Translations under genes and position numbers: made by a program
The notes under the pieces: generated by a model
Seen by the model: the letters and a program-made list of their open reading frames with translations, nothing else
Databases searched by the model: none
Told to the model about the DNA's origin: nothing
Part shown: positions 2,080 to 62,398 of the stretch, one piece after another
Position numbering within the stretch: the stretch's first letter is position 1
Layout: each line of letters starts with the position of its first letter
Sequence record: PQ615101
Reading direction: 5' to 3' (one strand)
DNA from: Shigella phage SP21535
DNA: 64,000 nucleotides

Positions 2080-3363
2080 TTATTCATCAACGATAATTTT
2101 TGGTAATTTAACACCTAATAAAACAGACAAATCTGAACGACCCGCCATTTTATCCATGTCTCCACCATCAATTATTCTTGCTTCTTTTTCATCTTTTGCT
2201 ACAGTGTAAGGATTTGCAGATAAAGCATATCTAACCAATAAACCGATAGATGGTTGTAAGCTTTCTGGATCAACTACAACTTTAAATGCACCTACATGTT
2301 CAGGGTCATCTAAGTCAAGACCTTCTGTATACGGAGCATAGAAAATTGATCCAACAATTTCTTTTTCGCCAATATTTTCTACTACACCAACGATTACATA
2401 ATCTAATGGGCTGTTAGTATCGCAATAAAGCGGTAAACCATTAGCTAAGAACCCGTAGGCATTTTGTGAAAGATATTTATCATCTTCTGGTTTATGTTTT
2501 AACCAACCTGATGCAGCAAGAATCGCAGCAGCACGAGCTGAAGCAACACAGAACGTTGCAGTATAAGTTGATTCTTTTTGGATATGCGAAACCATTTCAC
2601 ATACCATTCGGTATAATGAACGACCAGCTTCAGGTGCAGATGCATAACTCAAATCAATGAATCCAGTATCAGTAATTCCTGTAACTTTATAGCGTTTTGA
2701 CACTGTAATCAAAGACTGTAGAATATCTTTATTGATTTCATCCGCCATTTCAGTTGCAAGCAAATCTTCCAAGAAATTAGGAGCATCGAATCCATTTGCT
2801 TCTAAATCTTGTGCTAATTCAACTGTAATGCCAGTTTTAAGTTTACGAGATTTAACTGCGGTTTGCCATTTATTAATCTGGAATCTAGCATCAGCAATTT
2901 CGCTATCAGAGCTTTCAAATTTGCTCGTTGACGCTGCGTCAGAAAATAGACGAACCTTTAAAAGAACAATTGCAATCTGAAGAGCTAGTTCTAAATCGCT
3001 TTCTTCAATGGTAGCAAATGGTGTATCTTCTAATACTTTATAAACGATATTATTATATTTGAATAAATCGCCTTTATTGAGAGTTAATTTAGACTCTTCT
3101 GTTAATTCTGTGATTTGTTCTCGGTCTACATACCCAGCTTCGCCAGCGTAAGTAGCACCAGTTTTAAACGTAAATTCGTTGTCTGGGTTAAGGTATTTGA
3201 TACCATAAAAAGCAGCAACAGGTTGATTAGTTCTTTGCGTTGCTACAATGTCAGAATATATTAATTTAGTGGTAGCGCGAGTCAAAGCAACGAGATTTGG
3301 GCGACCGATTGAGTTGCTATTCGTTGTGGTTGATTCGCGCAGAAGTTCGTTGATTTTAGCCAT
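2080..3363 (-). CDS. 24: head vertex protein gp24
   Basis: 427 aa, paralog of gp23 fold, T4 gene order. Confidence 0.9.
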   Translation of the reverse strand: MAKINELLRESTTTNSNSIGRPNLVALTRATTKLIYSDIVATQRTNQPVAAFYGIKYLNPDNEFTFKTGATYAGEAGYVDREQITELTEESKLTLNKGDLFKYNNIVYKVLEDTPFATIEESDLELALQIAIVLLKVRLFSDAASTSKFESSDSEIADARFQINKWQTAVKSRKLKTGITVELAQDLEANGFDAPNFLEDLLATEMADEINKDILQSLITVSKRYKVTGITDTGFIDLSYASAPEAGRSLYRMVCEMVSHIQKESTYTATFCVASARAAAILAASGWLKHKPEDDKYLSQNAYGFLANGLPLYCDTNSPLDYVIVGVVENIGEKEIVGSIFYAPYTEGLDLDDPEHVGAFKVVVDPESLQPSIGLLVRYALSANPYTVAKDEKEARIIDGGDMDKMAGRSDLSVLLGVKLPKIIVDE

Positions 3364-11457: not shown

Positions 11458-15618
<4,161 letters not shown>

Positions 15619-37983: not shown

Positions 37984-38271
37984 ATGAAAACTTTCAAAGA
38001 ATTTACTTCTACAACTACCCCGGTTTCTACTATTACCGAAGCTACTCTTACTTCTGAGGTTATTAAAGCAAATAAAGGACGAGAAGGTAAACCAATGATT
38101 AGTCTGGCTGATGGTGAAGAAATCAAAGGTACTGTTTACCTAGGTGATGGGTGGTCTGCTAAAAAGGATGGTGCTACAATCGTTATCTCTCCTGCTGAAG
38201 AAACTGCGTTGTTTAAAGCTAAACACATTTCTGCGGCACATCTCAAAATTATTGCTAAAAATCTTTTGTAA
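37984..38271 (+). CDS. ipI: internal protein I (capsid-targeted, injected)
   Basis: 95 aa; N-terminal capsid targeting sequence ending ...ITE before mature Ala; gene order. Confidence 0.85.
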   Translation: MKTFKEFTSTTTPVSTITEATLTSEVIKANKGREGKPMISLADGEEIKGTVYLGDGWSAKKDGATIVISPAEETALFKAKHISAAHLKIIAKNLL

Positions 38272-38290
38272 TAAATAATTTCACAAAGTT

Positions 38291-38320
38291 GTTTACATAG
38301 GGTTTTAGTTGTGATACTAT
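38291..38320 (+). promoter_or_regulatory. early promoter stem-loop cassette
   Basis: GTTTAC 38291-38296; TGATACTAT; ATAGGG/CCCTAT stem. Confidence 0.5.
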
Positions 38321-38348
38321 TACCCTATCAACTACTGAGGAGAATAAA

Positions 38349-38534
38349 ATGAAACGTTGTGAATTAATTCGAAATGTTGCTATTGCAATTTCTGCTTCCG
38401 CTTTTAGTTTTTCAATGTTTGTTGGATTTATATGTGGATTATTAACTACAGCAGAAAATGTGTTTTCACTTGTAGTAGCATTTTTAATTGGTTTAATTGC
38501 TATCGTTATGGATAAAATTTCTAAAGGTGAATAG
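38349..38534 (+). CDS. small hydrophobic protein
   Basis: 60-aa ORF, predicted transmembrane helices. Confidence 0.45.
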   Translation: MKRCELIRNVAIAISASAFSFSMFVGFICGLLTTAENVFSLVVAFLIGLIAIVMDKISKGE

Positions 38535-38535
38535 A

Positions 38536-38916
38536 ATGTACAAAGTGTATGCGGATTATCAGGCTAATCCATCTGAAAAGCCAGGTTGTCAAATTGGATG
38601 GGCTCATGATACTTTGCTTGAAGCAGTAGATGCTGCTCAAAAATTGGGATATAAATATGTAGAGATTGTTCAACCGTCAGGAAAAGTTATTACTCTTGAA
38701 GAGTTCAATAACATTAAACCAAACTTTTTACTTTTTGCAGGTGATAATTATTATCCTCGTGGTGGATATGCTGATTTAATCGCGAAAGCCGCCACTGAAG
38801 ATGAACTCCGTGATATTATCAAAGAAAATGAAAATAAACCAGATTATGGTTCCAATCGTTTCGATTGGTGGCAAATTGTAAATGCCAATACTCATACTAT
38901 TGTTGATGAAGGCTGA
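38536..38916 (+). CDS. hypothetical protein
   Basis: ATG 38536 after RBS-like AAAGGTGA; track start 38497 is upstream alt start. Confidence 0.5.
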   Translation: MYKVYADYQANPSEKPGCQIGWAHDTLLEAVDAAQKLGYKYVEIVQPSGKVITLEEFNNIKPNFLLFAGDNYYPRGGYADLIAKAATEDELRDIIKENENKPDYGSNRFDWWQIVNANTHTIVDEG

Positions 38917-40662: not shown

Positions 40663-41000
40663 GACAAGAAACCGGGTCGCTACCGGTAAGTCGTCGGACT
40701 GATGTTCCCTGGGTAAGGAATTGCGTTAATAAATCTTTATGATTTGTTGATGCCCTCTTACATCACAGCAGAAACGGCGCACCGAATTATCGATTCGAGG
40801 AAATATCTTTGCCGTAAGCCGAGTAGCGTTTTTGACGGAACGTTCGGATATGGTCGAGATATGGCCTTTTAAAAATATTAAGTAGCGTCAACTGCTTAAT
40901 AACCGGGTTCGAATCCCGGCGTTTCGTACAAACACTTGCCTTAGCAGGTGGAACCCCGACAAGGTTGCCGCAAGGCTTTAGCCCCGACCGAAAGGTTGGG
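40663..41000 (+). ncRNA. structured stable RNA region (T4 species 1/2 RNA-like, tRNA-like T-arm)
   Basis: No ORF; GC-rich helices; CCGGGTTCGAATCCCGG T-arm-like element at ~40902-40918; precedes terminator. Confidence 0.4.
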
Positions 41001-46100: not shown

Positions 46101-46575
46101 ATGAAAACATATCAAGAATTTATTACTGAAGCAGCTATTAATTCTCAAAATTATTGCTGAATCTTTTACTGATCTTTTGAAATTTAAAAAAGGACAGAAA
46201 ATTACTGCTGTATTAGATGATGGTACAGAAGTTGAGATGGATGTACAGGGATATAATTATGCAGTAGATGGAAAACTGTATAATAAATCTCATGCTAAAT
46301 TTGATTCATTTGATGATTTTGTTAATACAGTTGAAGATGAAAAAACTCGTCGATCCATTGCAACTGGTGATGCTAAGGTTCTTATGGCGCATGGACATGA
46401 ACGTATTCGCGCTAAACAGAATAAAATGGGTGAAGATAATTTCGCATTAGTTGGTTATCAATCTGGTAAACAAACTTATGGTTATCAGCGTACTGCTACC
46501 ATGTATAATAAAAATGGTAAAATCGCTTTCGTGAATAGTAAAGGTTCTATTCAGTACGTTAAATCGTTCAAATAA
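46101..46575 (+). pseudogene. internal-protein-like gene interrupted by +1 frameshift at an A-run
   Basis: MKTYQEFITEA... reads 19 codons to TGA at 46158; downstream frame open to 46575; removing one A of AAAA 46147-46150 fuses them. Confidence 0.45.
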
Positions 46576-46716
46576 TATGGGAACAACCTGGACCTCATGA
46601 TTCTGTGAGGGATTCCCGCCAACCTGTAATAAGGTCGAGCCCAAGTGCGGTAATGGGTAAATACAGAAATGGACAATTCATGCGCCATGGAATGGCCCAA
46701 ATTTAGAGAGAATAAA

Positions 46717-47954: not shown

Positions 47955-48175
47955 TGGCAAAGATAATTATTGAAGGTTCTGAAGATGTGCTAAATGCTTT
48001 CGCCGAGTGGTTTAGTAATTCAGGCGAACAGCAATTTAATGAAGCGTGGAACATGGGTGATATTAGTGGAATTTATCCTACGACAGAAATTTCTGTTCAA
48101 GGATATGGAATTCATGAACCTATTCGTTTAGTTGAATATGATTTGGGAACAGGTGAGGAAGTAAAATATGATTGA
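47954..48175 (+). CDS. hypothetical protein
   Basis: 73-aa ORF, start overlaps upstream stop. Confidence 0.45.
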   Translation: MAKIIIEGSEDVLNAFAEWFSNSGEQQFNEAWNMGDISGIYPTTEISVQGYGIHEPIRLVEYDLGTGEEVKYD

Positions 48176-48434
48176 AGACATTAAAGGTTATAAGCCACAT
48201 ACTGACGATAAAATCAGTAAAGTGAATGCTATCAAAGACGCTGAAGTTCGTTTAGGACTTATCTTTGATGCTTTATACGATGAATTCTGGGAAGCATTAG
48301 ATAATTGTGAAGACTGCGAATTCGCAAAGAATTATGCTGAAAGCCTCGATCAGTTAACTATTGCTAAAACGAAACTCAAAGAAGCCAGTATGTGGGCTTG
48401 TCGTGCTGTGTTCCAACCAGAGGAAAAATACTAA
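48168..48434 (+). CDS. hypothetical protein
   Basis: 88-aa ORF, start overlaps upstream stop. Confidence 0.45.
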   Translation: MIEDIKGYKPHTDDKISKVNAIKDAEVRLGLIFDALYDEFWEALDNCEDCEFAKNYAESLDQLTIAKTKLKEASMWACRAVFQPEEKY

Positions 48435-48711
48435 TGGCTCAATTAAGCGCAGGGTTTGGTTATGAGTATTATACTGCCCTCGTCGTGTATCTGTTGCTCC
48501 TAAGAAAATTCAAAGTCTTGATGACTTCCAGGAAGTAGTTCGTAACGCTTTCCAGGACTATGCACGTTATCTTAAAGAAGATTCACAGGACTGTCTCGAA
48601 GAAGATGAAATTGCTTACTATGAGCAGCGTCTTGAACAGCTCAAAAATCTACATGAGGTTCGTGCAGAAGTTTCAAAGTCTATGAATAAATTGATTAGAT
48701 TTAAAGAATAA
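48434..48711 (+). pseudogene. small gene interrupted by -1 frameshift at A-run
   Basis: ATG 48434 frame stops at 48536-48538; overlapping frame open 48466-48711; one extra A in AAAA 48505-48508 would fuse to a ~92-aa product. Confidence 0.4.
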
Positions 48712-48713
48712 CT

Positions 48714-48743
48714 GTTTACTTTTCCTCTTGACTGTGGTATAAT
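48714..48743 (+). promoter_or_regulatory. early promoter (GTTTAC ... TGgTATAAT)
   Basis: GTTTAC 48714-48719, TGGTATAAT 48735-48743, flanking inverted repeat. Confidence 0.55.
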
Positions 48744-48770: not shown

Positions 48771-49232
48771 ATGACTATCAATACAGAAGTTTTTATCCGT
48801 CGAAATAAGCTCCGTCGTCACTTTGAGTCGGAGTTTCGTCAAATTAACAATGAGATTCGTGAGGCATCAAAAGCAGCAGGGGTCTCATCGTTTCATCTAA
48901 AATATTCTCAACATCTTCTTGATCGTGCAATTCAACGGGAGATTGATGAGACATACGTTTTTGAATTATTCCATAAAATAAAAGACCATGTTTTAGAAGT
49001 TAATGAATTCCTGAGTATGCCTCCGCGTCCTGACATTGACGAGGATTTTATTGATGGGGTTGAATATCGTCCTGGACGTTTAGAAATCACAGATGGAAAT
49101 CTTTGGCTTGGATTTACAGTTTGTAAACCTAACGCGAAGTTCAAAGACCCGTCACTTCAATGTAGGATGGCAATTATCAACAGTCGTCGTTTACCAGGAA
49201 AGGCTTCTAAAGCAGTAATTAAAACTCAATGA
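48771..49232 (+). CDS. regB: endoribonuclease RegB
   Basis: 153 aa; sequence and position between vs and the vs.x genes. Confidence 0.8.
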   Translation: MTINTEVFIRRNKLRRHFESEFRQINNEIREASKAAGVSSFHLKYSQHLLDRAIQREIDETYVFELFHKIKDHVLEVNEFLSMPPRPDIDEDFIDGVEYRPGRLEITDGNLWLGFTVCKPNAKFKDPSLQCRMAIINSRRLPGKASKAVIKTQ

Positions 49233-62170: not shown

Positions 62171-62330
62171 AGAATATATGGAGACTGCTGAAAAGGCAGT
62201 CCGTGAATTAGCAATAGCTTATTATAATGAACATGGTAAATTTCCTGATAGATACAGCGTGCTTAAATCAGCTTTAACTCGTTCATATAAAAATATGCTA
62301 TCAGAAGTAAGTGATATTATACAAACATAA
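62157..62330 (+). CDS. hypothetical protein
   Basis: ATG 62157 overlapping upstream gene end. Confidence 0.4.
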
Positions 62331-62398
62331 AGAACAAACGGGCCAAAGTCTTGATTACGACGAGACTTTTAAACAAGTATTAGGAATTAAGGAATAAT

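Follow-up and report, generated by a model that had tools for sequence, protein, structure and literature searches.

A single missing C splits the vs.3 (tadIV-1) anti-defense reading frame in the sequence of Shigella phage SP21535

Phage T4 evades type IV Thoeris by means of its Vs.3 protein, recently characterized as the anti-defense protein TadIV-1 (Chen et al., Nat Commun 2026, PMC13243611). TadIV-1 is a sponge that sequesters N7-cADPR, the TIR-made signal, with a KD of about 216 nM; it forms a homodimer of two-helix hairpins, and its binding pocket is built largely from a flexible N-terminal loop (PMC13243611). Mutations of R17, R18, and K24 in T4 TadIV-1 impair ligand binding, and deletion of the loop (residues 2-32 in UPEC07 numbering) leaves an inactive protein. 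Natural homologs of ~70 aa that have no loop are likewise inactive against type IV Thoeris, and loss of anti-Thoeris activity has been discussed as a natural outcome in the TadIV-1 family (PMC13243611). A T4 mutant deleted for vs.3 is viable, yet it is sensitive to type IV Thoeris (PMC13243611). The T4 gene product has been listed as an [quoted passage not shown] and our literature text searches with "vs.3" and phage terms returned no paper discussing the gene; the report of Chen et al. was reached via the PDB code.

The window that we analyzed is a 64,000-nt stretch of the Shigella phage SP21535 genome (record PQ615101), and it represents a Tequatrovirus (T4-like) early region with a GC content of 36%. 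The 701 nt around the locus of interest matched 573 phage records, mostly at 95-99% identity. The T4 gene order vs.6, vs.5, vs.4, vs.3, regB, vs.1, vs, and tk.4 is kept in the window, and the vs.4 (acb2)-vs.3-regB order, which marks the position of the gene in Straboviridae, is the same as in T4T and four other relatives. Thus, two sponge genes that are unrelated to each other stand side by side, i.e., vs.4, which encodes the cyclic-nucleotide sponge Acb2, followed by vs.3. The vs.4 stop codon (TAA, 48432-48434) overlaps the vs.3 ATG in the sequence TAATG, an arrangement typical of translational coupling, and the two genes appear to be coupled. The features of the locus are collected in Table 1.

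Table 1. Features at and around the split vs.3 gene (positions are those of the 64,000-nt window)
Feature	Position	Strand	Basis or description
Start-codon frame of the vs.3/tadIV-1 ortholog, 34 aa	48434..48538	+	Residues 1-15 native, then 19 out-of-frame residues, TAG
-1 frame remainder of vs.3, Pro16-Glu92 plus TAA	48478..48711	+	PDB 9wiw_A match, E 5.6e-38; PHROG 2037 over residues 22-92
C-run with 1-nt deletion (CCC versus CCCC in relatives), codon 16 (Pro16) of vs.3	48477..48479	+	Alignment with relatives
A-run AGAAAATTC, proposed earlier as slip or indel site	48503..48511	+	No difference between the window and intact orthologs
vs.4/acb2, 88 aa, intact upstream neighbor	48168..48434	+	ORF; Pfam PF24729 Acb2_Tad1_hairpin, E 1.2e-19; annotated vs.4 in T4T
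Early-promoter-like site between vs.3 and regB	48715..48743	+	TTTACT, 17-nt spacer, TG-extended TATAAT; consensus match 10/12
regB, 153 aa, intact downstream neighbor	48771..49232	+	ORF; annotated regB/endoribonuclease in relatives
Internal-protein-like gene, N-terminus MKTYQEFITEAAINSQ	46101-46575	+	Pfam DUF7412, E 1.7e-82 for the downstream part

In the relatives whose vs.3 annotation we examined (ECO07P4, Lv5cm, LYE-01, PD112, CE1, T4T, and BYEP01), a single ORF of 279 nt encoding 92 aa lies between vs.4 and regB, versus a start-to-stop length of 278 nt in the window. The difference lies in the C-run at codon 16, which reads CTGCCCCTCG in the relatives and CTGCCCTCG in the window (48477-48479). 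In a wider alignment (ACTGCCCCTCGT in the relatives versus ACTGCCCTCGT in the window), there is one gap, and it falls in this C-run; region-wide comparisons of the window with PD112, CE1, T4T, and BYEP01 revealed the same single gap. When one C is restored, the gene encodes a 92-aa protein that matches T4T Vs.3 at 91 of 92 residues and shows 100% identity to the ESh18, slur14, and vB_EcoM_112 homolog. A four-sequence alignment uncovered no private substitution in the window copy of vs.3 besides the gap.

An earlier reading of this DNA, made from the letters alone (the sequence-only reading), had described a small gene upstream of regB that is split by an apparent -1 frameshift. Our data agree with this description. 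The frame that opens at ATG 48434 comprises 34 codons and ends with TAG at 48536-48538, and the -1 frame, which encodes a hydrophilic helical sequence ending in LIRFKE, is free of stop codons from 48466 up to TAA at 48709-48711. Both the single ORF of the relatives and the one-base restoration identify the two frames as parts of one gene in 0/-1 relation, and the alignment with orthologs, together with the shared locus, places it as the vs.3-position gene of T4-like phages. We also looked for two independent genes in the orthologs and found one uninterrupted ORF instead. The same reading had pointed to AGAAAATTC as the slip or indel site. This sequence is indeed present at 48503-48511, but it is base-for-base the same in relatives with an intact ORF, and the sole length difference is the C-run at 48477-48479, so the indel was misplaced in that proposal.

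The -1 frame contains no ATG, GTG, or TTG before 48682, which is 10 codons before the end of the frame. Its vs.3-coding portion (48478-48711) contains both the two-helix hairpin and the loop residues that bind the ligand (R17, R18, and K24), and is joined to no start codon. Start-less open stretches of at least 60 codons occur about 15 times in the window, mostly antisense to genes. Since start-less frames of such length are not rare here, the significance of the -1 frame rests on its homology and not on its being open. The start-less open frame at 38255-38563, for its part, was rejected as a gene, being only the antisense of trna.4.

With respect to that homology, a phmmer search against solved structures returned one strong match, PDB 9wiw_A (UPEC07 TadIV-1), at E 5.6e-38 over residues 1-92. 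PHROG 2037, a family without known function, matched Vs.3 at E 2e-40, and Pfam gave a sub-threshold match to Tex_N and no family. The feature is an ortholog of T4 vs.3, encoding TadIV-1, and the split gene is a disrupted copy of an already known, recently characterized anti-defense gene. The restored ORF shows the homology to T4 Vs.3 and UPEC07 TadIV-1 that characterizes the family; the window sequence as written lacks an uninterrupted ORF of ~90 aa that joins the start, the N-terminal loop, and the two-helix body. More specifically, the window shares with T4 vs.3/TadIV-1 the locus between vs.4/acb2 and regB, the TAATG start context, and, after one C is restored, a length of 92 aa in which R17, R18, K24, and the two-helix region are encoded, and it differs in that the frame is broken at codon 16 and residues 16-92 have no start codon. 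The window allele resembles the short-group TadIV-1 homologs (about 70 aa) in that a functional N-terminal ligand-binding loop is absent. Unlike those homologs, which are intact ORFs with their own start and have kept the helical body, it has no translatable helical body, and it is otherwise a long-group TadIV-1 sequence. Short homologs, aligned by tblastn over residues 25-92, were found in Enterobacter, Kosakonia, and some Escherichia phages.

Vs.3/TadIV-1 orthologs are widely mislabeled in phage records as "endoribonuclease RegB (domain-containing)" (e.g., L011, 18397-18675), and the UPEC07 homolog in PDB 9wiw_A bears the molecule name "Endoribonuclease." The BYEP01 record carries a RegB-type label on vs.8, vs.7, and vs.1 as well. 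Pfam gave no RegB match for Vs.3. A single-base frameshift in a dispensable early gene is minor as a sequence feature and of a kind common in phage records; its value for annotation is that the locus should be labeled as disrupted vs.3/tadIV-1 (anti-type IV Thoeris sponge) rather than as a pair of hypothetical genes, as a recoding site, or as "endoribonuclease RegB."

We then assessed how widespread the intact and the split forms are. A tblastn search revealed a vs.3 homolog encoded in 651 phage records, 611 of them with an uninterrupted alignment over at least 80% of the protein; among the matches listed, the lowest-ranked records align over residues 25-92 only. A 65-nt query across the site matched 494 records, of which 492 covered at least 80% of the query, and among the matches listed every record aligned at 98.5%, which corresponds to the one gap. 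A 34-nt probe centered on the site and carrying the C3 allele, which cannot seed a match on the C4 allele, had no match in 50,697 phage records. As a control, the same kind of probe recovered real run-length variants at the intergenic positions 40977 (1 record) and 41705 (85 records). The exact 30-mer with three C's was absent from IMG/VR, metagenome contigs, and genome contigs, and its four-C version is present in IMG/VR. Exact look-up of the 34-aa product retrieved no gene on record.

Two explanations would make the split functional. In the first of these, a programmed -1 ribosomal shift within 48466-48536 (e.g., on A-AAA at 48505-48508) would yield a full-length Vs.3-like protein. The 0/-1 relation of the two frames is compatible with such recoding, as is the long downstream frame with no start codon of its own, and an AAA-decoding tRNA-Lys is able to slip on A-AAA. 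Nevertheless, we regard recoding as very improbable. The 611 orthologs have a single uninterrupted ORF, and no record shares the split arrangement; the A-run is unchanged in intact genes that need no shift, and it therefore did not evolve for shifting. Direct reading of 48466-48536 uncovered no X XXY YYZ heptamer, and 48470-48570 folds at -16.2 kcal/mol, compared with a mean of -17.8 for the shuffles (z +0.52), with no excess of structure over them. Moreover, a shift at the A-run would give LVVYLLLLR at residues 16-24 in place of PRRVSVAPK, so that R17, R18, and K24 would be lost (PMC13243611), and a shift at the C-run would require the alanine tRNA to move from GCC onto UGC, a re-pairing that is not slippery. 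The ribosomal slip at the A-run that the sequence-only reading had considered plausible is thus unsupported, given the intact orthologs and the lack of both a slippery heptamer and a downstream structure. Known programmed -1 frameshift genes, such as dnaX (A AAA AAG) and the tail chaperone gene (G/GT), have in common with the window the overlapping 0/-1 frames and an A-run in the overlap; in contrast to them, the window has no conserved split, slippery heptamer, or downstream stimulator, and a shifted product would be without the essential residues. The other explanation, i.e., two independent small genes, one for a hydrophobic peptide of 34 aa and one for a helical protein, merits next to no credence. 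The 34-aa frame does begin with a good ATG and has a hydrophobic-looking out-of-frame tail, but this tail is simply the Vs.3 loop region read out of frame, ATG, GTG, and TTG are lacking in the second frame up to 10 codons from its end, and each ortholog has a single gene. For the helical part, internal initiation was rejected on the same ground of no in-frame ATG, GTG, or TTG before 48682, and no Shine-Dalgarno-like sequence was seen before the in-frame ATT at 48508.

The sequence-only reading had counted vs.3 as the second frameshifted small gene of the early region, and it had argued from intact large structural genes against generally low sequence quality. The other frameshifted gene does exist. 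It starts at ATG 46101; because of one surplus A in the run at 46147-46150 (AAAA in the window versus AAA in PD112 and CE1), its frame ends at 46158-46160, and removal of one A restores a 157-aa protein. We take its MKTYQEFI start to be the capsid-targeting leader of T4 internal proteins. This DUF7412 frameshift lies 2.3 kb upstream of vs.3 and, as in vs.3, about 45 nt after the start codon. A 36-nt probe for the A4 allele matched no phage record.

To place the two events in context, the window was compared with four relatives (PD112, CE1, T4T, and BYEP01; compared part, 13965-64000). Only two unique uncompensated single-base indels were found in conserved genes within 13965-64000, both of them in dispensable accessory genes. 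Other single-base indels relative to these phages are mostly intergenic, compensated within a few codons, or located in diverged patches (e.g., the tRNA region). We also checked about 2,200 homopolymer runs of at least 3 bases against three relatives, observing 8 run-length differences from the closest relative, and grouped the indels relative to BYEP01 into clusters. Both unique indels occur in short runs (3-4 nt), though about 200 runs of at least 5 bases were aligned, and two other run-length differences that we tested are natural alleles common to other phages. A general homopolymer error was rejected, most differences being intergenic, compensated, or common to other phages. About 28 kb of structural genes showed no frame-breaking indel relative to phage BYEP01, and the comparisons with relatives and the run-length check agree that the window is not of generally low quality.

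Against this background, we infer with roughly even confidence that the missing C is a genuine loss-of-function deletion rather than a base-calling error. Falling somewhat short of an even chance, and a serious possibility all the same, is a sequencing or assembly artifact, according to which the phage would have a normal C4 run and an intact tadIV-1, the loss of one C having arisen during base-calling or consensus polishing; the additional A at 46147-46150 in the internal-protein-like gene would share this origin. Consistent with an artifact, both anomalies are homopolymer-length changes, and neither allele occurs in 50,697 phage records, the C3 allele being missing from IMG/VR, metagenome, and genome contigs as well. 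The glucosyl-hydroxymethyl-C DNA of T-even phages troubles some sequencing chemistries. In addition, neither gene shows other decay, and the restored Vs.3 is identical to the protein of other phages; with no private change in vs.3 besides the gap, the event, if real, must be very recent. The two anomalies, 2.3 kb apart and each about 45 nt into its gene, could also reflect a locally poor stretch of the assembly. Arguing against an artifact, there are only two such events and neither is in an essential gene, though the essential structural genes are the larger target, and no unique uncompensated change within a CDS was seen in the long runs, in which homopolymer errors are most frequent. A further reading, in which both unique frameshifts are real and selected, one disabling the TadIV-1 sponge and the other the DUF7412 gene, each through a one-base change in a short homopolymer about 45 nt into the gene, would have the phage shed counter-defense genes, possibly reversibly, as host defense senses or is triggered by them. 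The idea of such shedding has been raised for the inactive short TadIV-1 homologs (PMC13243611); for the window, we consider it improbable.

If the deletion is genuine, replication slippage would have removed one C from the C4 run at codon 16. Translation would start at ATG 48434, probably by coupling to vs.4/acb2 termination, and would yield 15 native residues plus 19 out-of-frame ones before stopping at 48536, and the resulting peptide would be without the loop residues R17, R18, and K24 and without both helices of the dimer body. Since the frame shifts just before these residues and the dimer body is lost, the allele is predicted to be null; as written, the sequence encodes no functional TadIV-1 and represents a disrupted member of the family (a pseudogene or a miscalled base). 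No functional TadIV-1 would then be made, and the phage would be expected to stay viable because vs.3 is dispensable. Such a phage would be naturally null for TadIV-1, with the adjoining acb2 intact and the rest of its background T4-like, and its predicted phenotype is sensitivity to type IV Thoeris that is rescued by vs.3 in trans. As for the downstream gene, the putative early promoter at 48715-48743 suggests that regB expression need not depend on vs.3 translation, and a polar effect of the frameshift on regB is therefore unlikely.

An A380V change has been reported to let T6 escape type IV Thoeris sensing (PMC13243611). In the window, residue 380 of gp24 (capsid vertex protein, 427 aa; 2080-3363, minus strand) is Ala (LVRYALSANPY), with the numbering assumed to be collinear with T6 Gp224. 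On that assumption, Ala380 is the T6 wild-type state, and a compensating A380V escape allele is absent from gp24.

Several further differences from T4 were observed in the window. The DUF7412 gene (46132-46575) stands in place of the ipIII-ipII-denV block of T4, the vs.8 N-terminus (46605-46712) is in another frame than in T4, and the nrdC.1 homolog (62314-62394) is shorter than that of T4 via a 2-nt difference at 62324-62326. All of these mosaic differences are common to PD112 and CE1, which identifies them as natural variants and not private indels.

Finally, the large terminase gene 17 is present in three ORFs (11461-14313, minus strand). The N-terminal part, of 297 aa, ends with ...AMIYIDE and then CVAKDTKV...DAQK and a stop; an ORF of 206 aa has a match to a TnsA-like/endonuclease I domain (PF08722, E 8e-10); and a 461-aa ORF reaches ...NNVESHN and continues with CAFIPNF..., the latter part presumably being the rest of gp17 as in T4. 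Judged from its ORFs, gene 17 looks like a "fractured gene" in which putative split-intein halves flank a free-standing homing endonuclease (compare Dassa et al. 2009, PMC2677866). Coverage of the gene 17 stretch reaches at least 80% in 17 phage records, including BYEP01, CE1, SG1, and HY03, and among the matches listed the annotated records carry two "terminase large subunit" ORFs.
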